Source of the DNA: an uncultured delta proteobacterium
GTDB lineage: Bacteria > Myxococcota_A > Polyangia > Polyangiales > B10-G4
Direction: 5' to 3'
NCBI GenBank assembly: GCA_963727445.1
Contig: CAVSGI010000004.1
Span: 32,001-96,000, forward strand
Length of the DNA stretch: 64,000 nt
Shown: positions 37,003 through 56,626 of the stretch, piece after piece
How positions within the stretch are numbered: position 1 is the first letter of the stretch
Layout: every line of letters begins with the position of its first letter
Notes under the pieces: model-generated
Told to the model about the DNA's origin: nothing
Database searches by the model: none
The model's input: the letters and a program-made list of their open reading frames with translations, nothing else
Made by a program: the position numbers and the translations under genes

Positions 37003-37481
37003 TCAGAGAGTCTTCGCCATGTGCGTGCGCATGTCGGGGATGCCGTAGCGCTCGGCGTAGCCCACGATCCGGTAGCCGCGGGCGAGGTAGTAGGGGCGGT
37101 TGTCCGGCTGCTGGGAGCGGGCGTCGGCGCGCACCTCGGAGAGGCCCACCGAGCGCGCGTGCTCCTCGAGGAAGTCCACCATCGCGCTGCCGACCCGCCG
37201 GTTGCGAAGCCCAGGGTGTACGGCCAGCCGCTCGTAGGCGAGAAAGCCCGCTTCGCCATCCACGTGAAAGCGACCCGAGCCTGCCGGACGTCCGTCCGTG
37301 AAGGCGAGGATCGCACCCCGCAGGCGATCTTCTCGCGCACCTCCGCGAGCGACTCGCGAAGCGCGCTCGACGGATCGGGGTGGAGCGCGCTCTCCGCGAA
37401 GGCGGCACGCATCAGGGCGTAGACGAGGTGCACCTCGTCGGGCTCCGCCATGCGGACGATGATTTCCGTCGCGTCGCTCAT
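37003..37481 (-). CDS. GNAT-family N-acetyltransferase (frameshift in a G run ~37318)
   Basis: N-terminal half MSDATEIIVRMAEPDE joins ERLAVHPGLRNRRVGSAMV (motif A) and YYLARGY when one G is added. Confidence 0.8.
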
Positions 37482-38572
37482 CCGTCGAGCACGAGCAGCG
37501 TGCGCGTGATCTCGAAGACCTTCTGCGGGGCGCGCGCGCTTGGGTCTTTGTCACGCTCGGCGGTGAACAGGTCGACCCCCATGTCGAGGAGGCGATCCGC
37601 GCGCTCGTTCTTGACGCCGACCAGACGGAAGGTGATCTCGCCGGTGCCGTCGTCCAGTGCTTTCTTGTCGAGGACCTTGGAGGCGGCGAAGAGGGTGTCG
37701 CCCGCGACGACGCCGGCGGGATGCGCGCCGTCGTCGTAGCCGAGATCCCAGAGGGCGTTGCCCGCGACGTCTCGGCTGGCGAGGCTCGCGACGAAGCCGA
37801 AGACAAGACCCCCGTAAACGACTCGCGTGCCGGTGAAGCTGTTGCCTTCCTTGCAGTAGATCTCGTCGAAGTGGATCGGGTGGCTGTTCCGCATCAGCAG
37901 CGTCAGCTGCATGTGCTCGGATTCGCCCACCGTCTTGCCGACCTGATGGCAGTAGACGTCACCCACCTGGAAGTCAGAGAAGAACCCGGCGAAGCCGCCG
38001 TGGCGCTCGAACCTCTCGATCCCCGCGCTGAGAGGCGCGGGGAGGCGCGGGAGGTCGGTGACCTCGGGCTGCGCGAAGTCCGTCGGCGGATCGATCGGCC
38101 GTCCTTCGACGGCGCCTGCCCGGATCAACGCCTTGCGTTCGAAAGAGCACACGACCACGCCGGTCTGGTTCTGCACGACGGTGCGGACGTGAACGACGCC
38201 CTTGTCGCCCTTCGACGAGGGCTTCTTGCCGAGCACCTTCGACGAGGCCGTCAGCGTGTCGCCGAGGTAGCACGCGTTCGGGAAGCGCACGTCGATGTAG
38301 GCGAGGTGTGCGATGGCCTGCTCGCTCACGTCGTGGACCGAAAAGGACAGGCCCAGGTTCATCAGCAGCAGGGGATGGACGACCCGCGCGTCGAAGCCGA
38401 GCTTTCGCGCGAACGCCTCCGACGCGTAGGTCGGGGTCGCGTCGAGGAACGACGCCTGAAACAGGGCGAGGGTGCCTCCGTCGACGGTGACCTCCCACGG
38501 GTGGACGTAGGTCGCGCCCACCTCGAAGTCGTCGAGGCGCCGGCCGTAACGCGGGGTCTTCATCCGAGTCAT
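37478..38572 (-). CDS. mch: Mesaconyl-C1-CoA hydratase (double MaoC/hot-dog fold)
   Basis: GRRLDDFEVG, SVHDVSEQAIAHLAY, GDTL..SSKVLG, and a second domain with HPIHFD and VVYGG. It is translationally coupled to mcd. Confidence 0.8.
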   Translation of the reverse strand: MTRMKTPRYGRRLDDFEVGATYVHPWEVTVDGGTLALFQASFLDATPTYASEAFARKLGFDARVVHPLLLMNLGLSFSVHDVSEQAIAHLAYIDVRFPNACYLGDTLTASSKVLGKKPSSKGDKGVVHVRTVVQNQTGVVVCSFERKALIRAGAVEGRPIDPPTDFAQPEVTDLPRLPAPLSAGIERFERHGGFAGFFSDFQVGDVYCHQVGKTVGESEHMQLTLLMRNSHPIHFDEIYCKEGNSFTGTRVVYGGLVFGFVASLASRDVAGNALWDLGYDDGAHPAGVVAGDTLFAASKVLDKKALDDGTGEITFRLVGVKNERADRLLDMGVDLFTAERDKDPSARAPQKVFEITRTLLVLDG

Positions 38573-40185
38573 TCGTCCTCCAACAGGCGCCTGGCGATCA
38601 CGTGCGCCTGAATCTCGTTGGCGCCCTCGAAGATCGACAGCACGCGCGCGTCCACCAGGAGGCGGCTGGCCGTGTACTCCACGGCGTAGCCGTTGCCGCC
38701 GTGGATCTGCACGTTGGCGTCCGCCGCCTCCCACGCGGCGCGGGTGGCGAGGAGCTTCGCCATGCCGGCCTCGAGATCGCAGCGGTCGCCCGAGTCCTTC
38801 TGCTCGGCGGCGTAGAAGGCGAGCTGCCGCGCCGCCATGGTGCGCGCGATCATCCGGCCGATCTTCCGCCCCACCCGCGGGAACGCGAAGATGGGATGGC
38901 CGAATTGCACGCGCTCGTTCGCATAGAGCATCGCGTCGTCGAGGGCGGCCTGGGCGATGCCCACACCGCGCGCCGCCGTCTGGATCCGTGCGCTCTCGAA
39001 GGTGCGCATCAGCTGCTTGAAGCCCGCGCCCTCCTCTCCGCCGAGGAGCGCGTCGCCCGGCACCGAGAAGCCGTCGAAGGACAGCTCGTACTCCTTCATG
39101 CCGCGGTAGCCGAGCACGGGGATCTCAGTCCCGGTCAGCCCCTCGTCGACGAACTCGGGCTCGCCCGGGGCCGGGTCGAGGCGCGTCTTTTCCGCGAGGA
39201 AGAGCGAGAGTCCGCCGTATCCGTCGTCGTCCGGGTCGGTGCGCGCCATGAGCGTCATCAAATCGGCGCGCACCGCGTGGGTGATCCAGGTCTTCTGTCC
39301 GCTCACCCGGTAGCTGCCGTCGTCCTGCTTGTCCGCGCGGGTCTTGATGTGCGCCAGGTCCGAGCCGTGGTTCGGCTCGGTGAAGACCGCCGTGGGCAGC
39401 ACCTCGCCGCTCGCGATCTTCGGAAGCCACCGCTTCTTCTGTTCGTCGGTGCCGCCGCCCATGATCAGCTCGGCTGCGATCTCGGCGCGCGTCCCCAGGC
39501 TCCCGACGCCGATGTATCCGCGCGAGAGCTCCTCGGTCACCACACACATCGCGACCTTGCTCATCCCGAGGCCGTCGTACGCCTCGGGGATGGTCAGCCC
39601 GAAGACGCCGAGCTCGCTCATCTGCGAGACCAGCTCCATCGGGATGAGGATGTCTTCGCGGTGGATGCTCTGCGCGCGCGGGATCACCTCGGCGTCGACG
39701 AAGCGGGCGAACTGCGCGCGGATCTCGCCGAGCATCGGATCGGAAAAGCCCCGGTCGCCGAAGCCCGCCTCGCGCGCCGCCTCGGCGATGGCCAGGTAGG
39801 CGGCCCCCTGACCATGCTCGGCCACGAAGTCGCGCACGCCCTCGGCGTGGATGGTGGCGGCCACGTCCTCGCCGCCGAGACCGAGCTCGGCGAGGCCGAT
39901 GCTCTCGCAGGCGCCGAGGTCGATGCCTCCGACGAGGACCCGCGCCGTCTCTGCCAGGTAGGCATCAGCGATGGCCCGCTCGTGGTCGCCCCCCACCCGG
40001 CCGGCCCAGGCAGCCAGCTGGCGACAGGCTTCGAGCTCCGTCCGGAGGTACGCGAGCCCGTGCGCGGCCAGCTGCGCTTCGTTCAGCTTCCGGCCACTGA
40101 CCCGTCCCCCGTCCATGACCCGCGTCCGGACCTTCTGCCGCGCGCGTTCGTAGAGCCCTTCGATGGCGAGGAGGACGCTTTCCAT
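38569..40185 (-). CDS. mcd: (2S)-methylsuccinyl-CoA dehydrogenase
   Basis: Acyl-CoA dehydrogenase with an N-terminal extension and Mcd-type signatures EELSRGYIGVGSLGTRAEIAAELI, LPTAVFTEPN.GSDL, EIPVLGYRGMKEYE and TFESARIQTAAR. Confidence 0.88.
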   Translation of the reverse strand: MESVLLAIEGLYERARQKVRTRVMDGGRVSGRKLNEAQLAAHGLAYLRTELEACRQLAAWAGRVGGDHERAIADAYLAETARVLVGGIDLGACESIGLAELGLGGEDVAATIHAEGVRDFVAEHGQGAAYLAIAEAAREAGFGDRGFSDPMLGEIRAQFARFVDAEVIPRAQSIHREDILIPMELVSQMSELGVFGLTIPEAYDGLGMSKVAMCVVTEELSRGYIGVGSLGTRAEIAAELIMGGGTDEQKKRWLPKIASGEVLPTAVFTEPNHGSDLAHIKTRADKQDDGSYRVSGQKTWITHAVRADLMTLMARTDPDDDGYGGLSLFLAEKTRLDPAPGEPEFVDEGLTGTEIPVLGYRGMKEYELSFDGFSVPGDALLGGEEGAGFKQLMRTFESARIQTAARGVGIAQAALDDAMLYANERVQFGHPIFAFPRVGRKIGRMIARTMAARQLAFYAAEQKDSGDRCDLEAGMAKLLATRAAWEAADANVQIHGGNGYAVEYTASRLLVDARVLSIFEGANEIQAHVIARRLLEDE

Positions 40186-40277
40186 GAGGCGCCCTTTACC
40201 ACTGATGAGGGTGGGATTCACGGTGACTTGGCTCCCGCCTCACGTCGCCCTCCGAATCCGGTATGGTCCACAGTCCG

Positions 40278-43200
40278 ATGCCTTCGGTCTTCGCCATCGT
40301 CAGCAAGAAGGTCTTCGAGTCGGACGCGGCCGGGCTCGGCCCGGGCGACGTGTGGAAGACCGGCGCCTATCTGAGCACCCACAAGAGCCTGGGCCCCCTC
40401 GAGGAGGGCGGAAACCTGTACCTCGTCACCGTCCGCCCGCCGAACGAAAAGCTCTGGCTCGTCGCCGTCCTCGAATCGCCGAAGAAGAAGAAGGACGGAT
40501 GGCACGCCAAGAGCAACGCCGTGCCGATCACCGACCTCTCGTCCCTCCGTTCGAAGATCGTCTTCTCGACCGGCAAGGGCATGTCGCAGAAGAAGGGGGC
40601 GCTCGGGATGTCGCTTCAGACGCCGCGGGTGCTCGCCGCGGCGGACGAGCAGCTGCTTCAGGCGGCGCTCGGGAGCAAGGTCCAGGCGGCGAAGAAGAAG
40701 GTCGCGAAGAAGACGAAGACGAAAGCCGCGAAGAAGAAAACAGCGAAGGAGTCGAAGATAGCGGCGGCGTCCGCTCCGGCCTCGCAGCCCGACGGTCCGA
40801 TCCACTACAACGAGGAGGCGCGAAAGTACCTCACGCCCCGTAGCGCGGACGATCTGAAGGCGCCCAAGACGACGAAGGCGCTCTGGAAGGCGCTGCGGAA
40901 CACAATCCGCATTCCCACGGACATCGGCGAAAGCCTGCCCGCCATCGCAGGCGCGTTCGCGGTGCTGGCCGATGCCGAGGAGCCTGAGGCGATCGACGCC
41001 GAGGCGTGGGCACAGCTGGTCATGTATGCCGGGGCGTACAACGCCGACAGGACCCTCGGCTATCTCGTCGCGAAGGTAGGCGTGGTCGAGGGACTGAAGA
41101 TCCTCATCCGTGCTCACGACTTCACGCGCCAGCGCGGACGTGTGCCCACCGTGATCCCCGCGACCGATCAGAACCCGCCGAACAACCTGGTGCAGGACGT
41201 GATCTTCCACGGCCTGCTCCGGGCGGACGAGGACACGCGCCGCGAGGCGCTCTTGGTGGCCGAGGAGTCCTATCCCGGCAGTAGCTTTCAACTGAGGCTG
41301 GCGCTCCTCGCGGCCTTCCCCGCGCAGGAGCATTGGGCGAGCGAGCTGGCGAAGGAGTGGCTGGCGTCGAGCTCGCCGCCTTCCTTCGGGCGCGACGCGC
41401 TCCTTCGGAGCGTCACCGATCCGAAGCTCATCGAGCCGATCGTCGCCAAGGCCGGGCTGAACTCGTCGATCATCGACGTGGTGCCGCTCCTCGGCGTGGA
41501 GGCGGTTCCCCTCCTCGAGGCGCTGCTGAGCGAAAAGCGATTTCCCAACGAGCAGAAGGCGCTCTCCCGTGCCCTTGCTTGCATTGCGACGCCCGCGAGC
41601 GCGGCGGCTTTCGCCAAGCACCTGCGCAAGAAGAACGTCAGGCCCTTCGCGACCGAGTTCTACGCGACCCATCCGGAGCTCGCCCCGGCGGCGCTCGGGG
41701 AGCTCGCGAAGAAGCGGACCAAGGTGGGCGCGACCGCGAAGGAGATCCTCGAGCGCGTGCAGCGTTCGCAGAGGATCGCCGCGCGTATCGACAGGGAGAT
41801 CGCGGACGACGCCGACGTACCCGAGATCCTCCGAAACCCGCCCTGGCATTCGACGACGCGACCGAAGCGAAAGAAGCCGAAGGTGATCGAGGGGCTGACG
41901 GTCCCGGAAGGCCCGAGCCACCTCCACTGGCCCGAGTCGTCACGGAAGCGCCGCATCGCGCGCCAGCTCCGGCAGTACTTCACCTTTCAGGATCCGGAGG
42001 CCGCGCGCCGCGAGCTCGAAGAGAAGCTCGAGACAGGCCAGGCTTTCTACGCCCAGGTCTACTACCCGGCGGATCGCCTCCTGCCCCTCCTCGAGAGCGC
42101 CGAGGTGCGGCTGATGTTCGGGTCGAACACGCCGGAGAAGCTGCTCGCGCTCTATGGCGAGCGCGCGCTCCCTGCGGTGCTTCGCAACTTCGAGCGCGAG
42201 CGGCTCCGCGCGACCCGGGAGCTGATCTTTCGACTCGAATCGCCGCGGGTGGCCGCGGGCCTCCTCGGCCACTTCTACGGCGACCGCGGGCGCTTCACGG
42301 CGGTGGCCTGGATCGAGCGTTACCCCGAAGCCGCCATCGCCGGGCTGGTGCCGGCCACCCTCGGGGCCTCGAAGAAGGCGGAGCGAAGCGGTGGCGAGAC
42401 CGCGCTCCGTCATCTTGCGCGCCGAGGTTACGAATCCGCGATCCGTGAGACGGCCGCGAGCTACGGCGAAGAGGCGGAAGCGATCGTCGACGCGCTCCTC
42501 GCGTGGGACGAGCGCTGGGAGTGCCCGAAGAAGCCGCCCAAGATGCCGACCACTTTCCGGCCGGCGGAGCTCAGGCCTCCGAAATTGAAAGACGGCAAGG
42601 CCTTGCCCGAGTGGGCCGTCGAGCGGCTCGGCGAGATGCTGCGCTTCAGTCCGTGTTACCCCGCGTATCCAGGCGTCGCCGAGGTCCGCGAGGCCTGCGA
42701 GCCGAAGAGCCTCGCCGAATTCGCGTGGGACCTCGCCCAGGCGTGGGACACCGACGGGGCGAAGGACAGTCAGATTCTGGATGCTCCACGCCGTCGAGCA
42801 CTTCGGCGACGACGAGGTGGTGCGGCGCCTGACGCCTGCGCTGAGCGGCGAGGGCATCGCCCGCATGCTCGGCCGCATCAACACGGACGCGGCGCTGATG
42901 GAGCTGGCGACCATCATCGCGCGGGTCGAGGGGCAATCGACGCCGAAGTACGCCTATGGGATGGACGACGCGATGCGCGAGGCCGCGGCCTATCGCGGGC
43001 TCGACGCCTTCGAGCTCGAGGAGCAACTGGTGCCGACCTTCGACGTGGATGCGGACGGCGGGGTCGAGCTCGACTTCGGCGCGCGGAGGCTCCGCGTGGC
43101 CTTCGATGCGGGCCTGAGGCCGGTGCTCCAGGACGAAAAGGGTGAGCGCTTGAAGGTGCTGCCCCGCGGCACCAAGGACGACGACGAGGAAAAGGTGAAG

Positions 43201-43893
43201 GCGGCACACGCGCTCTGGACCGACCTCCGAGAGGACGTGTCGGTGATCGCCGCGCGTCGCGGAGCGGGAGCGCGGCAGGCGATGCAGGAGGGACATCGCT
43301 GGTCGATCGATGCCTTCCGGCGCGTCTACCTCGAGCATCCGCTGATGAAGCATCTGTCGCGGGGCATCCTGTGGGAGGCGTACGACCCGAAGGGCGAACG
43401 GCTCGCGACTTTCCGCGTCGCCGAGGACGGGACCTTCGCCGATGTCGAGGACGACGCCGTCGTGCTCGACGAAAAGGTCGCCTCGGTCGGCGTCGCCCAT
43501 CCCTTCGCGATGACCGCCGATGCGCGTCGCGCGTGGCGCGAGATCTTCGACGACTACGAAGTGATCCAGCCCTTCGCGCAGGTGGCCACCGAGCCGCCGG
43601 CGCTGACGAAGGCGCAGCGGGAGAGTCACGCGGTGACCGAGGTGATCGCCATCGCCGACCTCGGCCAGGTCATTCGGGCGCGCGCCGAGCGTGGGTGGTC
43701 GTCGCGGACGATCGAGGCCAGTCGGCTCTTCCCGGACGGATCCTACGGGCTCTTCACGCAGGACTGGAAGTCGAAGGAGATCACCATCCGCGCCGTCGAC
43801 GAGCACGGAGAAGTGCGCAAGCTCGGGGACACGGACGACGTGATCCAGGGCGAGCTGGCGCTGGCGCTGCAGCTCGCGCGAGACGCGGTTTAG
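40278..43893 (+). CDS. DUF4132-domain protein (~1200 aa) with an unrecognised N-terminal domain; frameshift ~42775
   Basis: SLAEFAWDLAQAW, LEEQLVPTFDVDADG...LDFGAR, HPLMKHLSRGILW, VAHP and W.EIFDDYEVIQPFAQ are DUF4132/MolR-like. Two ORFs are joined by a one-base deletion. Confidence 0.8.
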
Positions 43894-44925
43894 TCGTCCA
43901 CGGCGGCATCCGCTGCGCCGATCGTGCGCGGCCGCTCGGGCAATGCGTGCTGCAGGAGCCGCATGACCAGCTCGGTCTCGTCTTCTTGGACCTTCGTCCA
44001 GGCGGCGCGCACCGCGTCGAGGTCGGCGTCTTGCGATGCGCTCGTGCTCAGATTCGACAGCAAGGCGGCCGCGTCCTCGTCCTCCAGGAGCGCATCCACC
44101 AGCGCGTCGAGGGCCGTGGGGCTCGTCTCGCTCTTGGCAGTCGACGCGAGGATCTGCCGTTCGAGCGCTGGCATCTCTTCGGTCGGCTCGACCTCCGCTT
44201 CGAGCGCGACCTCGAAGCCGGGGGTGGTCTTGGGGAGCTTGCCACCGCCCCGCCCCCACGCCTTGTAGCGTCCGATGGACAGCGCGATCTCGTCCGTCGC
44301 GGCGAGCCCGATGACGGTCATGGCGACGAGCAGGGCCAGGCGCACCGTCGGGCGTCGTCGGATCGACGAGGAGCCCGTCGTTCTTGGAGTCGCGACGTAG
44401 CCACGAGACGAGGGTGGCGTCGAGGAGCTCCGACAGCTCGTCGCCGAGCGCGACGGCGACGGCGCTGCTCAAGCTCTTGGCGCCGCCGAGCTCTTCGCTC
44501 ATCACGACGGGCTCGTACTTGAGCGACTCGCCGAAGGCGTAGTGGAGCTGGTCGCCTATGAAGACCACGAGCGCGCGGTCGCGCGCGTCTCTGGAGCGCG
44601 CGCGGTAGCGCTTCTTGCGAAGCTCTTCGAAGAGCGCCTTGCCGCCGAAGCTCAGCATGAGGAGGGCTATCAAGCCCGGTATGGCGGCGCCCACGTAGAG
44701 ATAGATCGGATTTTCGGGCGGACGCACCAGGAAGTAGATCGCCAGCAGCGCCGCGGCGAGCCCGACCAAGACGGGGAAGAGGCGGATGTGCTCGAGGCGC
44801 TTGTCGGCCGCGTAGTCGAACCAATCCACCTCGCGGTCGTAACCGCAACCTTTGCCGCGCGGGTGGTCCTTGCCGCAGCCGATGCAGAGGCTGGTCTTCG
44901 GGGGCGTGACCGGATTGGGGGCCAT
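43890..44925 (-). CDS. Hypothetical membrane protein with an N-terminal Cys/His knuckle; frameshift ~44347
   Basis: CIGCGKDHPRGKGC followed by two TM helices. The C-terminus continues in the 43890..44345 frame. Confidence 0.6.
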
Positions 44926-44981
44926 CAGGGTCAGGTAGTACCGTCTCCGAAGGCTGCTGCATAGGCGCTATGCTCCGCGCC

Positions 44982-46400
44982 ATGCGAACCGCGGCCGAAT
45001 ACGTCGAGAGCCTCAGAGCCCGCAACCTGCGCCTCTTCGTCGACGGAGAGCACGTGGCCGATCCGGTCGACCATCCGAAGATCCGGCCGGCGGTGAACGC
45101 GGTCGCGGCGACCTACGCGCTCGCGCACGACGAGCGCACGCGCGCCCTCGCGACCGCGTCGTCCGATCTGGTCGCCGGTCCGGTGAACCGTTTCACCGCG
45201 CTCTTCCGCGCGCCCGAGGATCTGGTGAAGAAGCTCGAGCTCCAGCGCGTCCTCGGGCGGCTCACCGGCACGTGTTTTCAGCGCTGCGTGGGGCTCGACG
45301 GGATCAACGCGCTCTTCATCGCCACCCACGACGCGGGGCCCGAGGCCCACGCCCGCTTCGTGGCGTGGCTCCGCGGTGTGCAGCAGCGCGACGAGATGCT
45401 CAACGGGGCGATGACCGACCCGAAAGGGGACCGCAGCAAGCGGCCGCCGGAGCAGCCCGAGCAGTACCTGCGCGTGGTGGAGCGGCGCGAGGACGGGATC
45501 GTGATCCGCGGCGCCAAGCTGCACCAGACGGGCGCCGCGAACAGCCATCAGATCCTGGTGATGCCAGGCCAGGCGCTGCGCGAGGGCGAGGAGGACTTCG
45601 CGGTCGCGTGCGCGCTGCCGGTCGACGCGCCCGGGGTGACGATGGTGCTCGGGCGTCAGCCCTCGGACGACCGGCGCGGCGGCCCGGATGCGGGCAACGC
45701 GCGCTTCGGCGGGCAGGAGTGTGTCGTCCTCTTCGAGGATGTCTTCGTTCCGACGGAGCGCGTCTTCCTCGACGGGGACGTCGCGTCTTGTTCGACGCTG
45801 GTGGAGGCCTTCGCGGGTTTTCATCGCGCGAGCTACGGCGGGTGCAAGCCGGGCAACCTCGACGTGCTCATCGGCGCCACTGATCTCATCACCCGCGCCC
45901 ACGGCGTGCGCCGCGCGTCGCACGTGCGGGACAAGCTGGTCGAGATGGCGCACCTCACGGAGACCATCCACGGCCTCGGCCTCGCGGCGTCGAGCAAGTC
46001 GACGCGTCACGCCTCCGGCATCCATCAGGTCGACCCCGTCCTCGCCAACGTCTGCAAGCATCACGTGACCGAGCTTCCGTACGAGATCGTGCGCCTCGCC
46101 GAGGATCTCGCGGGAGGATCCCTGTCGACGCTGCCTTCACTCGCCGACCTCGATCATCCGGAGATCGGCGAAGCGCTCCGCACCGTTGCCGGAAGCGAGG
46201 AGCGCGCGCGACTGCTCCGCTTCGTCGAGTCGCTCACCTACGGCGCCGGCTCGGTGCCCTTCCGCATCGAGTGCATGCACGGCGCCGGCTCGCCTCAGGC
46301 GCAGCGTGTGGTCCTCGAGCGCACCGTGGACTGGGAGGCGAAGGTGGCGCGCGCCCGGGTGCTCGCGGGGCTCGACGAGGACGAGGAGCTGGACGTCTGA
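44982..46400 (+). CDS. abfD: 4-hydroxybutyryl-CoA dehydratase / vinylacetyl-CoA delta-isomerase
   Basis: [4Fe-4S] ligand motifs CFQRCVG and HRASYGGCK, plus GAMTDPKGDRS, GAKLHQTG, FGGQE and ECMHGAGSPQAQR. Confidence 0.9.
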   Translation: MRTAAEYVESLRARNLRLFVDGEHVADPVDHPKIRPAVNAVAATYALAHDERTRALATASSDLVAGPVNRFTALFRAPEDLVKKLELQRVLGRLTGTCFQRCVGLDGINALFIATHDAGPEAHARFVAWLRGVQQRDEMLNGAMTDPKGDRSKRPPEQPEQYLRVVERREDGIVIRGAKLHQTGAANSHQILVMPGQALREGEEDFAVACALPVDAPGVTMVLGRQPSDDRRGGPDAGNARFGGQECVVLFEDVFVPTERVFLDGDVASCSTLVEAFAGFHRASYGGCKPGNLDVLIGATDLITRAHGVRRASHVRDKLVEMAHLTETIHGLGLAASSKSTRHASGIHQVDPVLANVCKHHVTELPYEIVRLAEDLAGGSLSTLPSLADLDHPEIGEALRTVAGSEERARLLRFVESLTYGAGSVPFRIECMHGAGSPQAQRVVLERTVDWEAKVARARVLAGLDEDEELDV

Positions 46401-46401
46401 G

Positions 46402-46873: not shown

Positions 46874-48440
46874 TCATTCGAGACGCACGGCCAGCGCCCG
46901 GAACGCGGAGCCTGGGGGCGGATTGGAGCGGCTGGCGCCCGCCGGGAGCGTTCCGTCGAGCGTGCGAAGCACGATGCAGCCTGCACCGCCGCCGCCGCCG
47001 CCGCCGTTCGCGTAGTTGCCCGAGGGGTCGCCGCCGCCCTGTTGGCCCTCGAGGGCTCGGAGGCCGCCCCCGCTCCCGCCGTCAGCGGCGTAGTTCCCAC
47101 CGCCCCGCATCCCGCCCGCGGCGTCGAGCTCTCCGCCATCCGCGCCGTCCATGCCGTTTCCGCTGCTGCCGGCGCTTCCTCCTCCGCCGCCGCCGCTCGC
47201 TCCGAGCACGCCTTCGAGCTCTATGGTCCGGGCTTCGAGGAGGATGGCGCCGCCGCTTCCGCCGCCCCCGCCGGCCGGGATGTTCGCGCCCGAGCCCCCA
47301 GCGACACCTCCCTCACCGCCGCCGCCGCCCGCGAGGATGCTGCCCCGAATGACGATGCTCTCTTGCGCGGTGATTCTGAATCGCCCCGCCGCCGGCGCCG
47401 CCGGTCGGCCCGATCGTCTCGCCTCCGCGCACGCCACCGCCGCCGCTGCCGCCGACGAGAGGGGTGAGCTCTGTCGGCGTGGCGAACATGCGTCCGCCGG
47501 GTCCGCCGCTCACCATCGCGCCGCCCTGGCCACCGTCGCCGCCCGGGCCGCAGAGACCGCCGCCCCCGCCGCCGCCATCTTCGTAGCCACCGGTGTCCTG
47601 GCCGCGTCCGCCGGGGTAGGGGCCGCCCGCCGGCTCGTCGGTGCCGCCGTTGATCCGGCCGGCGCGCCCGCCGCCCGGGCCGGGCACGTCTCGGCGCGCG
47701 CCCGCGTCGATCACTCCGTCGACCATGACCGTGCCCTCGGCGAGGATGACCAGAGGCAGAGCGCCCTGCACCGTGAGGGTGACGCCGCCGCCGACCGTGA
47801 GATCACCGACACTCACGACGCACACCGGGCTGTCGTCGCTGAGCATCGCGACCGAAGCGTCGCCGAGGACGCCCGTGGGGCAGTCGGAGGTGTGGTAGGT
47901 CTGCGAGGAGGTGAGCGTCACGTCCATGCCGGGCACGGCGGGCGGTGGGACGTTCGAGGGGACGATGCGCATGCACGACGCATCGCTCGCACATCCGCCG
48001 TCGGCGACGCCGCCGTCGTCGGACGTGACGCATCGGCCGTTGACGCAGACGCGATCGGTGTCGCAGACGTCGGTCGACGGAGTCGCGAGCAGCACGGTTT
48101 CGACCTGCGAGCCGTCGACGAGAGGAAGAGTCACGGGCGTGCAGCCCTCGGCGGTCACTTCGCAGCGGAAGTTTCGCGCGAGGGCGGCGAAGGCATAGGG
48201 GCCCGGTGGGAGCGAGGAGGGCATCGGACCCGGGGCGAGTGCTTCGAAGCTCGCCTCGAAGAGAACGTCGCTCGAGGTGCAGCCGCCGGCGAGGACGCGC
48301 GCTTCGATGCCGCGGGCCTGAGAGGCGATCATCGGATCGGCGAAGCTGACGACCCACGACAGATCGCGATCGCGCGTGCTGCATCCCGTCAGAACGGCGC
48401 ACAGGGCGAGCAGTCCGACGAGGGTGCGGCGGGGGATCAC
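46874..48440 (-). CDS. Gly-rich secreted lipoprotein; frameshift ~47375
   Basis: Lipobox LTGC and repeated GGGGGSGGAI.L.A units. Deleting one base gives GGGAIQITAQESIVIRG and joins the two ORFs. Confidence 0.78.
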
Positions 48441-48491
48441 AGCAGCGAGTCTAACCGCCGCGGAGAAAGTTCGCTCCGCTAGGTAGCGCCG

Positions 48492-48801: not shown

Positions 48802-48844
48802 TCCGCTTCTGTCAGTCCGCGCGTCGCGCATGCGTCTTCATCGT

Positions 48845-50146
48845 ATGAACACTCTTCGCGCGCTCGCTGATGACGCTCTTCTCTCTCGCTTCGCCGCCGA
48901 GGTCGCTCGGGACTTTCGACGCACGGAGGTGACGCTGCGGATGATCGAGGAGATCGATCGGCGGATGCTCTGGGCTTCGCTCGGGTACGCGTCGATGTTC
49001 GCGCTCTGCGTGGAGCGCTTCGGGATGTCGGAGTCGATGGCGGGCAAGCGCATCGGGGTGGCGCGGCTCGCGCGGCGCTTTCCGGTGATCTTCGAGAGGG
49101 TGGGGCGGGGCGAGCTCTTCGTGAGCGGCGTGCTCTGCTTGAAGCCGTATCTCGACGAGGACAATCACGTGCGCGTGCTCGAGGCGGCGCGGGGCAAGAG
49201 CCGGCGGGCGATCGAGAAGCTGGTGGCGGAGCTCTTTCCGCGACAGGACGTCGCTTCGACTTTGCGCGCGCTTCCCAGGTCCTCGCTTTCGAAGGGAGTG
49301 GAGGCGCCGGCGCTCGTCGCGTCCGCTTCCGACTCGCCGCCCCGCGAGCTCACTGACGGACCCGTGAGAACGCCCTTGCCTGCGCCGAAACCTTGGCGCG
49401 CGCCCACTGACGGACCCGTGAAAACGACCTCGCCCACGCCGAGGCCCGCGCGCGCTCCCGATCCGGCGCCCCTAGCGCCCCGCCGCTACAAGCTGACGGT
49501 GACCATCGACGAAGAGACGCACGGCGAGCTCGCGCAGCTTCAGGATCTTCTCGCGCATCAGATCCCGGATGGGGATCCGGCGGCGATCGTGAAGAAGGCG
49601 TTCTCCCTGCTCCTCGGGGAGACGCTGAAGAAGAAGGCGGCGATCACCGACGCGCCTCGCGCGGGGCGCACGCGGGCGAAGAAGCGGACGCGCGCGATCC
49701 CGGCCGCCATCCGTCGCGCGGTGTGGAAGCGCGACGGCGGCAAGTGCACCTTCGTGGGCGAAGGCGGCAAGGTGTGTGGTGCGACGCGAAAGCTCGAATA
49801 TGCGCACCTCGAGCCGTGGGGGATGGGCGGCGAGCACGCGGTGGAGACGATGGCGCTTCGCTGTCGCGGCCATAACGCGTACGAAGCGGTGCGCGACTAC
49901 GGCGCTCCGCTCATCGAACGCAAGCGACGCGAGCGCGGCGTGCGGGAGCAGGCGGCGGTCTACGGACGAGCGCCGGCTGATTCATGCCCCCCGCGCACGG
50001 TCGTGCTTTCCCCGGGGAAAGCTGCCCCCCCGACACGCTTCCGCTTCGCGCCTCGGTCACCCCCAGACGAAAAGGAGCGACCGACCGTCCGAAGACCGGG
50101 AGTGGGGCGTGCTCACGCGCACGATGTACATCGATCTCCACCATGA
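48845..50146 (+). CDS. HNH endonuclease-family protein (helical N-terminal domain plus C-terminal HNH)
   Basis: EIDRRMLWASLGYASMFALCVERFGMSE..AGKRI N-terminal domain; RAIPAAIRRAVWKRDGGKC.F.......C...LEYAH..PWGMGG.H....LRCRGHN C-terminal domain. Confidence 0.85.
   Translation: MNTLRALADDALLSRFAAEVARDFRRTEVTLRMIEEIDRRMLWASLGYASMFALCVERFGMSESMAGKRIGVARLARRFPVIFERVGRGELFVSGVLCLKPYLDEDNHVRVLEAARGKSRRAIEKLVAELFPRQDVASTLRALPRSSLSKGVEAPALVASASDSPPRELTDGPVRTPLPAPKPWRAPTDGPVKTTSPTPRPARAPDPAPLAPRRYKLTVTIDEETHGELAQLQDLLAHQIPDGDPAAIVKKAFSLLLGETLKKKAAITDAPRAGRTRAKKRTRAIPAAIRRAVWKRDGGKCTFVGEGGKVCGATRKLEYAHLEPWGMGGEHAVETMALRCRGHNAYEAVRDYGAPLIERKRRERGVREQAAVYGRAPADSCPPRTVVLSPGKAAPPTRFRFAPRSPPDEKERPTVRRPGVGRAHAHDVHRSPP
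50005..50022. repeat. REP-like palindrome GCTTTCCCCGGGGAAAGC
   Basis: Perfect 18-bp palindrome in the low-complexity 3' tail of the HNH ORF. Confidence 0.85.
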
Positions 50147-50541: not shown

Positions 50542-51810
50542 TCAGCCTATCGCCTCCAGCGTCTCCTTCAGGTTTCTCAGGCCCGGCCGCGGTGCGCCCA
50601 CGAGGCAGGCGACGGTGCCGTGGAGCTTGTTTTCGTACATGAGCTGGTGGGCCTTCGGGATCTCGTCCCAGGTGAAGAGGCGGGTCATCACGGGGCGGAT
50701 GACGCCCTGATGGACGAGGCGGTTGGCGCGGTGGGCCTCGCCGGCGTCGGCGAAGTGGCTGCCGATGATCGACTTCTGGTGCATCCACAGATGGCGGACG
50801 TCGAAGGTGAGGTCGTAGCCGGTGGTGGCGCCGCAGATGACGATGCGGCCGAAGCGGTTCGCGAGGAAGACGCTCGCCGGGAAGGTGGCGCGACCGACGT
50901 GCTCGAAGACGACGTCCGGGCCTTTCTTTTCGCCGAGGATGTCCCAGATGGCGCGGCCGAAGCGCTTCACCTCGGCGCGCCACTTCCCTTCACTCTCTTC
51001 GGTGAGCGCCTCCGGGTAGCTGAGGTCGGGGAAGTCCTTGCGGTCGATCACGCCGAAGGCGCCGAGCTCCTTCGCGAGCTTCGCTTTCTCCTCACTCGAG
51101 ACGACGGCGATGGCTCGCGCGCCCACGAGCTCGCACAGCTGGATGGCGAAGACGCCGAGGCCGCCGGCGCCGCCCCAGACGAGCACGTCCTCGCCCGGTT
51201 GGATGTGCGCGCGGTCCATCAGCATGCGGAACGCCGTGAAGTAGGTGAGCCCGTAGCTCGCCGCCTCTTCCCAGCTGAGCTCCGGCGGCTTCGGCAAGAG
51301 CTGCTGCGCCTGCACTTTGGTGAACTGCGCGAAGGAGCCGTCGGGCGTTTCGTACCCCCAGATCCGCTGCTTCTTGCAGGCCATCGGCTGGCCGCCGTTA
51401 CAGTGCTCGCATTGGCCGCAGGTCGCGTTGCAGTGGGCGACCACCTCGTCGCCGACGCTGAGCCCGGTCACCCCCGGGCCGACCTTCCACACCACGCCCG
51501 ACGCGTCGGAGCCCGCGATGTGGAACGGCAGGCCGTGTCCGCGCGTGACGTCCACCGGTTGGCCGAGCCCCGCCCAGACGCCGTTGTAGTTCACACCGGC
51601 CGCCATCACCTTCAACAGCACCTCGCCCGGTCCCGGCTCCCAGGTCTCGATGGCCTCGGAGACGAAGCTCTTCGTCGGCTCGCCGAAGCGCTCGGGGCGG
51701 ATCACCCACGCGTGCATCTTCTGCGGGACGACGCCCAGCTCGGGGATCCGCCCGACGTCGACGATCTCGGGTGTGTGAACGGCGAAGAGATTCTTTGCAG
51801 GCTGGCTCAT
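50542..51810 (-). CDS. ccr: Crotonyl-CoA carboxylase/reductase
   Basis: VMAAGVNYNGVWA, FHIAGSDASGVVW, QRIWGYETPDGSFAQF..VQAQQLLPKP and LWMHQKSIIGSHFA. It is divergent from ecm. Confidence 0.93.
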   Translation of the reverse strand: MSQPAKNLFAVHTPEIVDVGRIPELGVVPQKMHAWVIRPERFGEPTKSFVSEAIETWEPGPGEVLLKVMAAGVNYNGVWAGLGQPVDVTRGHGLPFHIAGSDASGVVWKVGPGVTGLSVGDEVVAHCNATCGQCEHCNGGQPMACKKQRIWGYETPDGSFAQFTKVQAQQLLPKPPELSWEEAASYGLTYFTAFRMLMDRAHIQPGEDVLVWGGAGGLGVFAIQLCELVGARAIAVVSSEEKAKLAKELGAFGVIDRKDFPDLSYPEALTEESEGKWRAEVKRFGRAIWDILGEKKGPDVVFEHVGRATFPASVFLANRFGRIVICGATTGYDLTFDVRHLWMHQKSIIGSHFADAGEAHRANRLVHQGVIRPVMTRLFTWDEIPKAHQLMYENKLHGTVACLVGAPRPGLRNLKETLEAIG

Positions 51811-51911: not shown

Positions 51912-53886
51912 ATGACCGAACGCGACCGCCCCTGGATCATGCGCACCTACGCCGGCCACTCTTCGGCCGCGGCGTCGAACGCGCTCTATCGAACGAACCT
52001 CGACAAGGGGCAGACGGGGCTCAGCGTCGCCTTCGACCTTCCCACGCAGACCGGTTACGACCCGGACCATGCGCTCGCGCGCGGTGAGGTCGGCAAGGTC
52101 GGCGTCCCGGTCGCGCATCTCGGCCACGTGCGCACGCTCATGGGCGGCATCCCGCTCGACCGGATGAACACGTCGATGACCATCAACGCGACGGCGCCCT
52201 GGCTCTTCGCGCTCTACCTCGCCCACGCGCAGGAGCGCGGCATCGCCGAGGAGGGGCTCGCCGGCACCACCCAGAACGACATTCTCAAGGAGTACCTCTC
52301 GCGCGGCACCTACATCTTCCCGCCGGCGGCCTCGATGCGGCTCACCACGGACCTCGTCACCTACGCCGTGAAGATGGTGCCCAAGTGGAACCCCATCAAC
52401 ATCTGCAGCTACCACCTGCAGGAGGCGGGGGCGACGCCAGGGCAGGAGCTCGCCTACAGCCTCGCCAACGCCATCGCCGTTCTCGACGCGGTGAAAGCGA
52501 CGGGGCAGGTGGGAGACACCGACTTCGCGCGCGTCGTCGGTCGCATCAGCTTCTTCGTCAACGCGGGCATTCGCTTCGTCGACGAGCTCTGCAAGATGCG
52601 CGCGTTCGTCGCGCTCTGGGATCGCATCACCCGCGAGCGCTACGGCGTCACCGATCCGAAGCTCCGGCGCTTCCGCTACGGCGTGCAGGTCAATTCCCTC
52701 GGGCTCACCGAGCAGCAGCCCGAGAACAACATCCTGCGCATCGTCCTCGAGATGCTCGCCGTCACCCTCTCGAAGGACGCGCGCGCGCGTGCGGTGCAGC
52801 TCCCCGCATGGAACGAGGCCCTCGGGCTGCCGCGCCCCTGGGACCAGCAGTGGAGCCTGCGGGCCCAGCAGATCCTCGCCTACGAGTCCGACCTCCTCGA
52901 GCACGGCGACCTCTTCGAAGGAAGTATCGTCGTCACCGAGCGCACCGCCGGGCTCATCGAGGAGGCGGACGCGGAGATCGAGGAGGTTCTCTCGCGCGGA
53001 GGCGCGGTCGCCGCCATCGAGAGCGGCTACGTCAAGCAGCGCCTCGTCGAGTCGAACGCGGCGCGCCTCGCCGCCATCGAAGCCGGTGAGCAGAAGGTGG
53101 TCGGCGTGAACTGCTACGTCGAGTCCGAGCCCTCGCCGCTGACCGAGAGCCTCGACGACGCGATCCTGGTCGTCGACCCGGAGGTCGAGGCGCGCCTGGT
53201 CGACGAGGTGACGCGCTGGCGCGAGAACCGGGACGCGGCCGCGGCGCGCAAGGCCCTCGGCGCGCTCGCCCGCGCCGCTTCCGAAGGTGACAACATCATG
53301 CCTGCCTCCATCGCCGCCGCGCACGCCGGTGTGACGACGGGTGAGTGGGGCCAGATGCTCCGCGAGGTCTTCGGCGAGTACCGCGCGCCCACCGGCGTGT
53401 CCGGCGCGCGAATCACGGGGGGCGACGACGTGAAGGTGCGCGCCCTGCGCGCTGAGGTGGACAGCCTCGCCGAGTCGCTGGGCCGGCGTCCGCGGATCCT
53501 CGTCGGCAAGCCGGGCCTCGACGGGCACAGCAACGGCGCCGAGCAGATCGCCATCAAGGCGCGAGACGCCGGCTTCGATGTCGTCTACGAGGGCATCCGC
53601 GTGACCCCGGAGCAGCTGGTCTCCTCCGCGCTCGAAGAGGGCGTGCACCTCATCGGGCTGAGCATCCTGAGCGGCTCCCACCTCTCGCTGGTCCCCGCGA
53701 TCGTCGAGCAGCTCCGGGCCGCGGGTCTTTCGAACGTGCCGGTGGTGGTCGGCGGCATCATCCCCGACGAGGACCGCGAGAAGCTCGAGGCGGCCGGCGT
53801 CGCGGCGGTCTTCACGCCCAAGGACTTCGAGCTCGAATCGGATCATGGAGTCCCTCGTCGCTCTCGTCCGTGACGCGAGCGCCTGA
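51912..53886 (+). CDS. ecm: Ethylmalonyl-CoA mutase (MeaA/Ecm); frameshift ~53836 near the C-terminus
   Basis: RPWIMRTYAGHS, GLSVAFDLPTQTGYD, FRYGVQVNSLGLTEQQPENN, LPAWNEALGLP and the B12 motif GLDGHSNG. A one-base correction gives TPKDFEL(D/N)RIMESLVALVRDASA with the stop at 53886. Confidence 0.92.
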
Positions 53887-54871
53887 ATGGCGAGCGAGGA
53901 TCTCAGCGAGCGGCGTGCTCCGCGGCGACAAGAGCGCCGTCGCCAAGGCGCTCAACCTGGTGGAGGATCGGCGCCCCGGCGCGCGCGCGACGGTGGCGTC
54001 GCTCCTCGACCGCCTCGCAGAGGCGAGCGACGCCGCCAAGGGCCGCCGCATCGGCATCACCGGCCCGCCGGGCGTCGGTAAGAGCACCCTCGCCGCCGCA
54101 CTCGCACGCGAGCTCCGCACCCGCGACCAGCGCGTCGGCGTCGTCGCCGTCAATCCCTCGAGCATCAAGAGCGGCGGCGCGCTCCTCGGCGATCGCGCGC
54201 GCATGAGCTTCGATCCGAAGGACGACGGTCTCTTCGTCCGGTCCCTCGCCACCGGCGGGGAAGCCGGCGGCCTCAGCTGGGCGGCCAACGCCGCGGTGCG
54301 CGTGCTCGGCGCCGCCTACGACGTGGTGCTCATCGAGACCACCGGCGTCGGCCAGACCGAAACCGACGTCGTCGATGTGGCGGACACCGTGGCCCTCGTC
54401 GTGCAGCCAGCGTCCGGTGATGCGCTGCAGTTCCTGAAGGCGGGCATCATGGAGATCCCGGACGTGCTGGTGGTGAACAAGGCCGACCTCGGTGAGGTCG
54501 CCCGGCGCGCCGCCGCCGATCTGGCCGCGGCGCTCCTGGCCCTCGGCGCCGCGGGCGCCGGAGACGCGAAGATCTCCGTCGTCGAAACGAGCGCCACCGC
54601 CGGCACCGGCATCGGCGCGCTCGCCGACGCCCTCGAGGCGCACCACAGGCGGCTCGGCGAAGAAGGTCGCTCCGAGCGTCGCCGCCGCGGAGACGCGGCC
54701 TGGGCGCGCGCCCGCTTCGTCCGCCGCTTCGGGGAGCTGGGCGTCGAGACCGCCGGCGGAAGAGGGAAGCTCGAGGACCGCATCGCGGCCCTCTTGAGCG
54801 GCGGCAAGGGGCCTGTCCGCGCGGCGGAGGCGCTGGGCGAAGAGGTTCTTTCGAAGCTTCGGCAGGGCTGA
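53887..54871 (+). CDS. meaB: MeaB/ArgK GTPase chaperone for B12-dependent mutases; frameshift ~53912
   Basis: GITGPPGVGKST, PSS..SGGALLGDR.RM, ETTGVGQ, GDALQFLKAGIMEI.D and NKAD. ATG 53887 directly follows the corrected ecm stop. Confidence 0.9.
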
Positions 54872-54914
54872 CACGGGGAGGGGGGATCGGGGATTACGCC
54901 CGTGACCGGCGGAG

Positions 54915-55040
54915 CTTTACAGCTTCACAGATGACGCGGTGCGTAATCGCTGAGGTACGCACCTTGGTGTCGTGTTACAAGGGATAGATTCACTTGACGC
55001 CCAGATTACACGGTGCTTTACAAGTAAAGCCTCTGTAAAC
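54915..55040. promoter_or_regulatory. AT-rich promoter region with TTACA/TGTAA repeats and the palindrome GCTTTACAAGTAAAGC
   Basis: Palindrome at 55015-55030; CTTTACAG/CTTCACAG at 54915-54930; TTGACG at 54994; TGTAAA at 55034. Confidence 0.55.
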
Positions 55041-55051
55041 CTGGTGGTGCG

Positions 55052-56626
55052 ATGAACGGTAAAACCAAGGGACCACACGCGAAGATGGGGCAGAAGCTCC
55101 GCGAGCTCCGCCTCGAGCGGGGGCTCATGCAAGGGGAGGTCGCCCGCCGCCTCGCGATCTCGCCCGCGTACCTGAGCCTGATCGAAAAGGGGAAGCGTCA
55201 GGTCCAGCTCCCGCTCCTCTTCAAGGCCCTCGAGGTCTACGGCGTCCCGATGGAGACGTTCATGGCGAGCCTCGGCGAGCACCGCGTCGACGACGGCCTC
55301 GCCAAGCTCCTCGACGAGCCGCTGCTCCGCTCGCTGAACCTGAGCGAAGAGGACGTGGCGAGCCTGAGCGCCGAGCCGAAGATCGTCACCACCATCACCG
55401 CGCTCTTCAACCTGTACCGCTCGACCCGCAATCAGCTCGACAACGTGCTGACCAGTCTGGCGGAGCGGGAGAAGCGCACGCGAGAAGGGAGCGAGCCTCC
55501 CGCGATGGCGGGAAGCGAGGGCGGCGGTGAGGGCCTACGCTTCGAGCTCAGCCCCTTCGACGAGGTCACCGACTTCCTGCAGAAGAACGACAACTGGTTC
55601 GGCGGCCTCGAGCAGCGCGCCGACGCCTTGCGCGCCGAGTGCGGGGTCGACCGCTGTGCGACCAGCGCCGATCTCGGGGAGATGCTCGAGAAGAATTTCG
55701 GCATCCAAGTCCGGGTCGTGCCGGGCGGCGCCGAGAGCTCGGTGGTGCGCCGCTGGGATCCCAAATCACGGCAGCTGACGCTCTCCCGCGAGCTCGGCGA
55801 GCAGCGGCTGCGTTTTCAGCTGGCCCATACCGTGGGCCTCCGCATCCTGGACGAGGAACGCCAGCACGAGGGGCTCATCGCCCGCTACCCGGCGCGCCTC
55901 GCCGAAACCGAGAAGCTCATCAAGATCCACCTCGCGAATTACTTCGCGGGCGCGCTGATGCTCCCCTATCAGGACTTCTATGATGAGGCGCAGCGCACCC
56001 GCTACGACGTCGAGCGGCTGACGACCATCTTCGACTCGAGCTACGAGACGGTCGCCCATCGCCTCTGCAATCTGAGCGATCCCGATCGCCGGGGGCTCCC
56101 CTTCTATTTTCTGCGCCTCGACGTCGCGGGCAACATCTCCAAGCGCTACTCGGCGGTCGACCTGAAGTTTCCGCACACCAGCGGTAGCTGCCCCAAGAGC
56201 GCCGTCCACCTCGCCTTCCTCACGCCGAACGTGCTCGTGCGCCGCTACGAAACCCATCCCGACGGCACCAGCTACTTCGTCTTCGCCAAGGTCGTCACCG
56301 AGCCCAAGCAGGGCTCCATCGAGCGCGGCACCGCCTACAGCATCGGCCTCGGCACCTACGCCGATCACGCAGCCGAGCTGGCCTACGCCGACGACATGCC
56401 CTTCGCCGATCCGAAGAAGATGGCCATCCCGGTGGGCCTGACCTGCCGCTTCTGCGCGCGCACAGACTGCAATCAGCGCGCGGCGCCCAGTTACAAGTTC
56501 GCCTTCACCGTCGACGAGTACACCAAGAAGGACAACTTCTTCTCGCCCCACGTCTCCGGCGACGAGGCGGCCGAGGTCGCGGTGGCGGCACGCCGGGGCA
56601 AGAGGCGCCCGAGCTCGCGCGAGTGA
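55052..56626 (+). CDS. Short-chain fatty acyl-CoA regulator (ScfR; RamB/PccR/PrpR family)
   Basis: XRE HTH (ARRLAISPAYLSLIE), RFQLAH, ANYFAGALMLPY, SYETVAHRL, D.AGNISKR and C-terminal CRFCARTDCNQRA.P. Confidence 0.9.
   Translation: MNGKTKGPHAKMGQKLRELRLERGLMQGEVARRLAISPAYLSLIEKGKRQVQLPLLFKALEVYGVPMETFMASLGEHRVDDGLAKLLDEPLLRSLNLSEEDVASLSAEPKIVTTITALFNLYRSTRNQLDNVLTSLAEREKRTREGSEPPAMAGSEGGGEGLRFELSPFDEVTDFLQKNDNWFGGLEQRADALRAECGVDRCATSADLGEMLEKNFGIQVRVVPGGAESSVVRRWDPKSRQLTLSRELGEQRLRFQLAHTVGLRILDEERQHEGLIARYPARLAETEKLIKIHLANYFAGALMLPYQDFYDEAQRTRYDVERLTTIFDSSYETVAHRLCNLSDPDRRGLPFYFLRLDVAGNISKRYSAVDLKFPHTSGSCPKSAVHLAFLTPNVLVRRYETHPDGTSYFVFAKVVTEPKQGSIERGTAYSIGLGTYADHAAELAYADDMPFADPKKMAIPVGLTCRFCARTDCNQRAAPSYKFAFTVDEYTKKDNFFSPHVSGDEAAEVAVAARRGKRRPSSRE

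Follow-up and report, generated by a model that had tools for sequence, protein, structure and literature searches.

A conserved ethylmalonyl-CoA gene cluster in an uncultured member of the Polyangiales, with 4-hydroxybutyryl-CoA dehydratase as its probable chance neighbour

Does a locus in which genes of the ethylmalonyl-CoA (EMC) pathway lie on either side of a gene for 4-hydroxybutyryl-CoA dehydratase (abfD) encode a natural counterpart to the CETCH cycle (named for crotonyl-CoA, ethylmalonyl-CoA and hydroxybutyryl-CoA), a dedicated route from 4-hydroxybutyrate, or a known pathway with an accidental neighbour? The question is raised by a stretch of 64,000 nucleotides of contig CAVSGI010000004.1 from an uncultured delta proteobacterium of the order Polyangiales (the window, by which we mean this whole stretch), part of a 9.47-Mb assembly of 27 contigs that is rated 85.6% complete. 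CETCH is a synthetic cycle that has run only in vitro, according to an excerpt of PMC10173188. A first interpretation based on the letters alone (the sequence-only reading) had proposed that the window holds either such a cycle in nature or a linear assimilation of 4-hydroxybutyrate with co-fixation of CO2. Our analysis points to the known pathway, with abfD probably a chance neighbour. In what follows G000 is the genome of the window, other G-numbers are relatives, C-numbers are contigs of G000 and L-numbers are loci.

The seven genes on which the sequence-only reading was built are present where it had placed them, as borne out by profile and PDB matches:

37478..38563, minus strand: mch, mesaconyl-C1-CoA hydratase (Pfam MC_hydratase PF19315, 81.7 bits, cut-off 26.5; PDB 4e3e E 2e-40, 8hgn E 8e-39; 78% identity to the orthologue in G001)
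38569..40221, minus strand: mcd, methylsuccinyl-CoA dehydrogenase (PDB 6es9 best with 542 bits; 8ciw, a (2S)-methylsuccinyl-CoA dehydrogenase, 283 bits)
44970..46400, plus strand: abfD, 4-hydroxybutyryl-CoA dehydratase / vinylacetyl-CoA isomerase (PDB 1u8v 467 bits, E 5e-139; 6vjr 451 bits)
50542..51810, minus strand: ccr, crotonyl-CoA carboxylase/reductase (TIGR01751 508.6 bits, cut-off 378.6; PDB 4gi2 E 2e-137)
about 51912..53873, plus strand: ecm, ethylmalonyl-CoA mutase (B12 mutase family)
53870..54871, plus strand: meaB, mutase chaperone GTPase (TIGR00750 243.9 bits, just above the cut-off of 240.75)
55052..56626, plus strand: scfR, regulator of the ScfR family, of the RamB/PccR/MccR kind (ScfRs PF09856, Peptidase_M78 PF06114 and a helix-turn-helix domain)

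Judged by sequence, the window does encode the five CETCH-type activities that had been read from it, namely Ccr, Ecm, Mcd (in the place of Mco), Mch and the dehydratase. The same ccr, ecm, meaB, mcd and mch, together with a regulator of the ScfR type, are shared with the EMC systems of Rhodobacter, Paracoccus and Streptomyces. The name of ecm is based on its family and conserved context: it is 62-77% identical to mutases beside ccr in relatives, versus 38-41% to the Mcm-type proteins of its own genome. For mcd, the best PDB match 6es9 is presumably the Paracoccus enzyme, and the identity to acyl-CoA dehydrogenases that adjoin ccr in relatives is 65-77% over the full length. The regulator reaches 301 bits with the RamB model, under its cut-off of 700, and is 57-74% identical to regulators in the EMC clusters of relatives.

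The order scfR-meaB-ecm-ccr-mcd-mch is that of a conserved EMC cluster of the Polyangiales, and the grouping of its genes is far above chance. The junction of ccr and mcd was measured between alignment ends in 11 relatives. The two genes are 6-92 bases apart in seven of these (G005, G009, G018, G023, G031, G047 and G119), including the two with the closest Ccr (79%; G005 and G023). The gap amounts to 0.4-1.2 kb in three others, where G002 and G014 have an mcl-like gene in between and G037 has 376 bases, and only in G040 is the pair separated by 5.2 kb of unrelated genes. The same EMC genes occur in G006, with ccr inverted. In the window the interval comprises 10,320 bases of unrelated genes, among them abfD. 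This gene is 4.7 kb away from mcd and 4.1 kb away from ccr, and its strand is opposite to that of ccr, mcd and mch. The gene map thus agrees with the earlier description of abfD as standing between an mcd-mch and a ccr/ecm block with unrelated genes on either side. Compared with known EMC systems the genes are clustered here, and the cluster is split by these 10.3 kb. The simplest reading of the split is an interruption particular to this lineage, the direction of change being suggested by an unrooted comparison.

The position of abfD, in turn, is not conserved. An order-wide survey of 161 genomes (abfD at E <=1e-100, ccr at E <=1e-90) found 66 genomes with abfD and 60 with ccr, both genes being present in 39, abfD alone in 27 (including the unpublished G114) and ccr alone in 21. 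Among the 39 genomes with both, only that of the window has the two genes close together; they are unlinked in all 38 relatives, two of which carry them on the same contig, 1.1 and 7.5 Mb apart. In addition, 80 GTDB loci around relatives of AbfD (45 with more than 5 kb on both sides), chosen regardless of the EMC content of the genome, have no EMC orthologue beside abfD; the four weak matches are generic acyl-CoA or alcohol dehydrogenases (24-34%). Conserved synteny of abfD with the EMC genes is ruled out by these two results; together with the search for a succinyl-CoA reductase described below, the two refutation tests set by the sequence-only reading have turned out against its main inference. 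Clustering of 686 neighbour proteins gave no conserved metabolic partner of abfD either, the families being lineage-specific or generic (kinases, YkuD, DUF218, nuclease) and mostly non-metabolic. The two closest abfD homologues in a set of 41 genomes (82% and 78%) belong to genomes without ccr or mch that have isocitrate lyase. The chance of at least one abfD-ccr neighbourhood among 39 genomes is about 13% (the sum of 20 kb over genome length), a rough estimate that assumes random placement and ignores kinship. A position of abfD within the EMC genes by more than chance is not shown by these counts. The literature on abfD together with myxobacteria, the EMC pathway or a natural CETCH yielded no such linkage or cycle, in a search that left subscription papers largely uncovered and excluded supplements.

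Some observations weigh against such a chance placement. The abfD gene lies exactly inside the cluster, and selection may have favoured that position in this one lineage. Most of the unlinked cases (36 of 38) are genes on different contigs, in assemblies that are partly fragmented. The co-occurrence of abfD and ccr (39 of 161 genomes) is higher than expected under independence; with 21 of the 39 belonging to one genus, however, it cannot count as an independent sign of coupling. The four genomes of this genus that were examined have CitE/Mcl-like genes 6-10 kb from abfD, with unrelated genes between. In the only congener, G001, neither abfD nor ccr was found, and its mcd contig stops inside mcd, so that it cannot date the arrangement. 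Finally, the genome of the window has no clear Mcl1 orthologue, its sole CitE-family protein being 28-34% identical to the lyases of relatives and located at a frameshift-rich contig end.

A chimeric assembly would be another way to bring abfD into the cluster. A search of sequencing runs matched one DNA run (share 0.18) and listed no RNA run. Short, near-identical contigs of this run, of similar low depth, fall on mcd, on the DUF4132 gene in the interval and on ecm, which hints weakly against a chimera, as the contigs are possibly non-independent; among the pieces listed, none joins abfD to either block.

Weighing both sides, we consider it probable that the EMC cluster of the window is an ordinary one and that abfD is a passenger in it by chance. 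The EMC pathway is an established alternative to the glyoxylate cycle, and neither isocitrate lyase nor malate synthase has a match in the genome of the window, at its 85.6% completeness. In the 41-genome set isocitrate lyase has 12 strong and 5 weak matches; it has none in the 12 genomes with a Ccr of the window type (at least 66% identity), and it occurs together with a Ccr only in G007 and G027, where the Ccr is 51% identical. It is found in four of the six genomes with abfD and without ccr. On contig C27, a thiolase, an Hbd (410 bits, cut-off 408) and a crotonase-like gene (317 bits, cut-off 394) stand together and can supply crotonyl-CoA without AbfD. Thus, the missing glyoxylate enzymes and the presence of thl-hbd-crt explain the EMC genes as a route of acetate assimilation.

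Of the remaining steps, that of the epimerase has as its candidate a VOC-family protein on C25, which gives the best score with the model TIGR03081 (47.6 bits, cut-off 115) and is 61% identical to a plasmid-borne protein whose gene lies directly upstream of scpA. For malyl-CoA/beta-methylmalyl-CoA lyase and malyl-CoA thioesterase there is the one CitE-family protein, which has malyl-CoA lyases as best PDB matches (141 and 131 bits), with RipC-like proteins scoring close; the lyase step is the weak point of the inventory. Pcc-like carboxyltransferases are encoded on C6 (in pieces) and on C27, none above an equivalog cut-off. Mcm is split, with two genes for mutase N-domains and one for a B12-binding domain above cut-off, and has its own MeaB; genes of the tricarboxylic acid cycle are present. 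The wider search that the sequence-only reading had called for met with a mixed outcome: pcc- and mcm-type genes and candidates for epi, mcl, 4-hydroxybutyrate dehydrogenase and the CoA-transferase are found, whereas aceA has no match. Like the known EMC systems, this one lacks isocitrate lyase and has its Pcc and Mcm encoded away from the cluster. It differs in the apparent use of thl-hbd-crt instead of PhaB/CroR, for which no specific search was made, and in the absence of a clear Mcl1 orthologue from the assembly. A near-complete EMC pathway with ccr is described for the myxobacterium Ca. Houyibacterium oceanica in an excerpt of PMC10576062. A second Ccr, above the TIGR01751 cut-off and 40% identical to that of the window, is encoded among non-metabolic genes on C19 (L047:2560-3942). 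Phototrophy and the Calvin cycle were rejected, as RuBisCO, phosphoribulokinase and the photosynthetic reaction centre (PF00124) have no match in the genome.

In this account the locus would be the usual Polyangiales EMC cluster, by which a cell that has no glyoxylate shunt assimilates acetyl-CoA. Crotonyl-CoA would be made by thiolase, Hbd and Crt and carboxylated by Ccr; the epimerase candidate, Ecm with MeaB, Mcd and Mch would then lead to methylmalyl-CoA, which the CitE/Mcl-family lyase would split, and Pcc with the split Mcm would carry propionyl-CoA to succinyl-CoA, while ScfR would sense CoA esters. The 10.3-kb run of unrelated genes, orphan abfD included, would have come between ccr and mcd in this lineage. 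Across the Polyangiales, the survey documents a compact EMC cluster that is linked to ScfR and found in alternation with isocitrate lyase.

The abfD gene itself, present in a single copy and with no metabolic partner adjoining, appears to encode a genuine dehydratase. A misannotated HpaB was ruled out by the scores (467 bits to 1u8v versus 139 to the best HpaB) and by the presence of the cluster ligands. In the alignment, C102, C106, H285, C292, Y289, K293 and E434 correspond to C99, C103, H292, C299, Y296, K300 and E455 of 1u8v, so that three Cys and one His predicted to bind a [4Fe-4S] cluster, as well as the putative catalytic Tyr, Lys and Glu, are all conserved with respect to 1u8v and 6vjr. 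We take the Cys to be cluster ligands and the Lys to be catalytic. The roles of His, Tyr and Glu are named in an excerpt of bioRxiv 10.1101/2020.02.05.935528. The protein thus shares cluster ligands and catalytic residues with the enzymes of Clostridium aminobutyricum (1u8v) and Nitrosopumilus maritimus (6vjr), and differs from the AbfDs of 4-aminobutyrate fermentation and of the HP/HB cycle (3-hydroxypropionate/4-hydroxybutyrate) in having no abfT, abfH or sucD adjoining and in its tunnel residues. The latter are Thr76/Thr101/Ala426/Gly427, as against Leu77/Thr102/Arg441/Asn442 in the oxygen-tolerant and Ala73/Ser98/Ala447/Ser448 in the oxygen-sensitive enzyme (same bioRxiv excerpt), so that one of the four oxygen-tolerance residues, a Thr, is matched.

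The closest named relatives of AbfD are mostly records of Myxococcota, Sandaracinaceae and Polyangiales. In a tree of 100 sequences from 103 loci, some of which are duplicates of one genome, the protein falls in a well-supported myxobacterial subclade of 33 sequences, duplicates included. The Arg-Asn tunnel pair is present in 63 of the 100 sequences; the subclade (window 44970-46400, L002-L005 and L061-L089) has Ala/Ser-Gly instead and also lacks the Leu, although its hosts are probably aerobes. It thus forms a myxobacterial AbfD group without the known oxygen-tolerance residues. The closest AbfD of all (86%, L061) comes from a record titled 'uncultured Enterobacteriaceae bacterium' that groups with the myxobacterial sequences and may be mislabelled.

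As to its role, AbfD would most likely act in the catabolism of 4-hydroxybutyrate, or of succinic semialdehyde or substrates derived from 4-aminobutyrate (GABA), with partners encoded elsewhere. A CoA-transferase of the AbfT/Cat2 family on C11 has 4-hydroxybutyrate CoA-transferases as best PDB matches (473 bits), and an iron-containing alcohol dehydrogenase on C10 has 4-hydroxybutyrate dehydrogenase as best NCBIfam model (394 bits, below the cut-off of 500) and no PDB match of that name; both are distant from abfD. One match on C20 resembling a ligase of the PatZ/ACD type is a further candidate for activation of 4-hydroxybutyrate. The sequence-only reading was right in its enzymatic logic, the product of AbfD, crotonyl-CoA, being the substrate of Ccr. 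The crotonyl-CoA from AbfD would join the common pool, to be oxidised or assimilated by the EMC pathway, and 4-hydroxybutyrate or succinic semialdehyde could in this way be assimilated through Ccr in a cell that lacks isocitrate lyase. Such a linear feed into the EMC pathway, whatever the positions of the genes, seems to us a real possibility, if not the favoured one. Of the proposed linear route with CO2 co-fixation, the part that stands is that the genome, with its AbfT- and Gbd-like candidates, would allow it; nothing links it to the locus. Roughly one in four of the genomes sampled from this order encodes both AbfD and Ccr, so that the route is testable.

A stronger proposal, that selection recruited abfD into the EMC cluster as a dedicated entry for 4-hydroxybutyrate, is in our view unlikely. 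It would have 4-hydroxybutyrate, released from gamma-butyrolactone, polyester breakdown or GABA, pass by way of the CoA-transferase and AbfD to Ccr, in a linear assimilation with co-fixation of CO2. The intact active site and the two candidate partners on C11 and C10 are consistent with it, as are gabT/gabD-like genes that adjoin abfD at a few distant loci (L090, L108) and a gene for a YtnP-like metallo-lactonase (127 bits, below cut-off) immediately ahead of abfD. The latter arrangement was seen in the three genomes inspected (L030, L169 and L170) of the abundant genus mentioned above, in which 21 of 21 genomes carry abfD as well as ccr, and hints at lactone-derived 4-hydroxy acids as substrate. 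However, the linkage is absent from all 38 relatives and from the 80 loci, neither candidate partner is near abfD, and members of the CoA-transferase family are encoded by 26 of the 41 genomes, including 13 of the 25 without abfD. Moreover, none of the six aminotransferases scanned exceeds the GabT cut-off, and the genome has proteins resembling succinic semialdehyde dehydrogenase, which counts against a dedicated entry since aerobes can alternatively oxidise 4-hydroxybutyrate to succinate. A diaminobutyrate transaminase of the ectB type does score above its cut-off (L160; C6:63800-65200).

It is more doubtful still that the AbfD subclade serves some other purpose, be it isomerisation of vinylacetyl-CoA during the breakdown of fatty acids, provision of 4-hydroxybutyryl-CoA for a class III polyhydroxyalkanoate synthase or a micro-oxic electron sink, with the EMC cluster again unrelated. 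The missing Arg-Asn pair would fit such a role, as would a class III PhaC-like synthase (L183; C5:178384-179415; 257 bits, cut-off 365) and an enoyl-CoA hydratase gene that three Sandaracinaceae-like loci have as the second gene upstream of abfD. Against it, the catalytic and cluster-binding residues all match those of characterised dehydratases, and no conserved partner gene suggests another substrate.

There remains the cycle itself, in which succinyl-CoA would be reduced back to 4-hydroxybutyryl-CoA in a hydrogen-powered, autocatalytic fixation of CO2. In the genome there are candidates for all steps but one, if the succinic semialdehyde reductase (Ssr), the activation of 4-hydroxybutyrate, the epimerase-like, CitE/Mcl-like, Pcc and Mcm proteins and two copies of Ccr are added to AbfD, Ecm, Mcd and Mch; those for Epi, Mcm, Ssr and 4-hydroxybutyrate activation lie outside the window. 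In addition, an operon for NiFe hydrogenase, with large and small subunits and hyp genes, is present (L182; C9:89000-100000); its N-terminus resembles what we take to be the high-affinity group 1h type. The missing step is the one catalysed by succinyl-CoA reductase, an acylating aldehyde reductase that CETCH needs according to the enzyme list in an excerpt of PMC10249356. The assembly yielded no such enzyme, whether of SucD or of Asd type, contrary to what the proposed natural cycle would call for. Only one of the 16 Aldedh matches is acylating, the others reaching at most 71 bits to it, and this protein is of the PduP/EutE type: it passes PRK15398, scores 419 bits to PduP versus 158 to SucD and has Val/Thr/Ile at the pocket positions that are Leu158/Val331/Leu483 in PduP and Lys70/Ser243/Thr395 in SucD (same excerpt of PMC10249356), so that the lysine binding the distal carboxylate in SucD is missing from it. 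Its gene is part of a small microcompartment locus (L041:7869-11366; C27:267868-271365) in which the shell genes are EutN-like, BMC-H and BMC-T (EutM- and CcmP-like) and a signature enzyme is not obvious among the neighbours; 12 of the 41 genomes have the dehydrogenase. Of the Asd family there are two proteins, identified as Asd and ArgC, each above its own cut-off.

The relatives argue in the same direction. The 41-genome set, with up to 37 candidates scored per genome, includes nine relatives that have both abfD and ccr; in eight of them an acylating aldehyde dehydrogenase has no match. Nor was a glyoxylate sink found in the genome of the window: malate synthase, glxR, hyi and glxK have no match, and the closest gcl match (29%) is acetolactate-synthase-like. 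An excerpt of PMC4510362 calls the assignment of the thaumarchaeal succinyl-CoA reductase candidate doubtful, and the reductase here could belong to an unrelated family or lie in the approximately 14% of the genome that is unassembled. A mixotroph might even close the loop with such a reductase, or with the microcompartment dehydrogenase acting on succinyl-CoA as a side reaction, the hydrogenase supplying electrons and Ccr and Pcc fixing two CO2 per turn; we hold this version to be very improbable. As it stands, the cycle is not closed for want of the reductase, its genes do not form one unit, the 38 relatives with both genes all have abfD apart from ccr, and its dehydratase matches one of four oxygen-tolerance residues, so that a natural CETCH-like cycle is not supported and hardly credible. 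If true, it would be a new natural pathway of CO2 fixation and a living template for synthetic CETCH, and one would search for it in the 39 Polyangiales genomes that carry abfD together with ccr; as the evidence stands, the value of the finding is modest.

Returning to the ordinary EMC cluster with a chance passenger, the genes that accompany abfD in the 10.3-kb interval are paralogue-rich and non-metabolic:

40278..43893, plus strand: DUF4132 protein (PF13569) in two frames with a break near 42775, an unrelated passenger
43890..44345, minus strand: small open reading frame, called by codon score, without Pfam or NCBIfam match
46402..46827, minus strand: small open reading frame converging on abfD, without family match
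47313..48440, minus strand: glycine-rich, lipoprotein-like open reading frame, without family match
48830..50146, plus strand: repeated element with atypical codon use and the lowest codon score of the region, without family match

The DUF4132 protein has six paralogues elsewhere in the genome, against one of which the frame switch was shown, and the lipoprotein-like protein has five (blastp within the genome). The repeated element has a paralogue on C27 (52% identity, 71% at the DNA level) and carries what by eye we take to be an HNH-nuclease-like motif, without a library match. None of these three stands beside abfD in the 80 other loci.

Upstream of scfR a candidate operator was found:

54916..54929, plus strand: conserved 14-mer TTTACAGCTTCACA

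According to an excerpt of PMC10370305, ScfR proteins bind CoA esters and regulate the assimilation of acetate and propionate. The 14-mer occurs once in the genome at up to one mismatch (0.04 expected in the window by shuffling) and is identical before scfR in G009, G047 and G119, with similar boxes in most other relatives. In the region of window 54900-55050, most relatives have TTTACA-nn-TTYACA, a near-palindrome TGACGC...GCGTAA and a distal TGTAAA. The candidate box is found neither upstream of abfD nor of ccr, ecm or mcd; as it is also missing before these EMC genes, it is uninformative on co-regulation of abfD. A copy with two mismatches precedes a gene for a 3-hydroxyacyl-CoA dehydrogenase on C24. 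A Sigma-70 scan of the region gave 0 promoters, and terminators were at chance level.

Downstream of mch lies a neighbour that is kept in relatives:

37003..37478, minus strand: GNAT acetyltransferase (Pfam Acetyltransf_1) in two frames with a break near 37317

Its two frames are 54-70% identical to the GNATs that follow mch in G001 and G005. Single-base frame breaks in ordinary genes recur in this assembly, at 37317, 42775 and 53836 of the window and on C6, C13, C20 and C21, affecting the GNAT, DUF4132, the ecm tail, pccB and sucA. The similarity of ecm to its relatives stops near 53840, and one low-depth contig differs by a single base at 53836, which makes an assembly slip in the tail probable; as two of the breaks match one-base differences in low-depth contigs, slips of this kind are likely. 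Elsewhere in the window (31102-34112), a DUF1592/1588/1585/1595/1587 protein is followed by a DUF1552 protein (Pfam), a gene pair that we take to be common in myxobacteria and planctomycetes.

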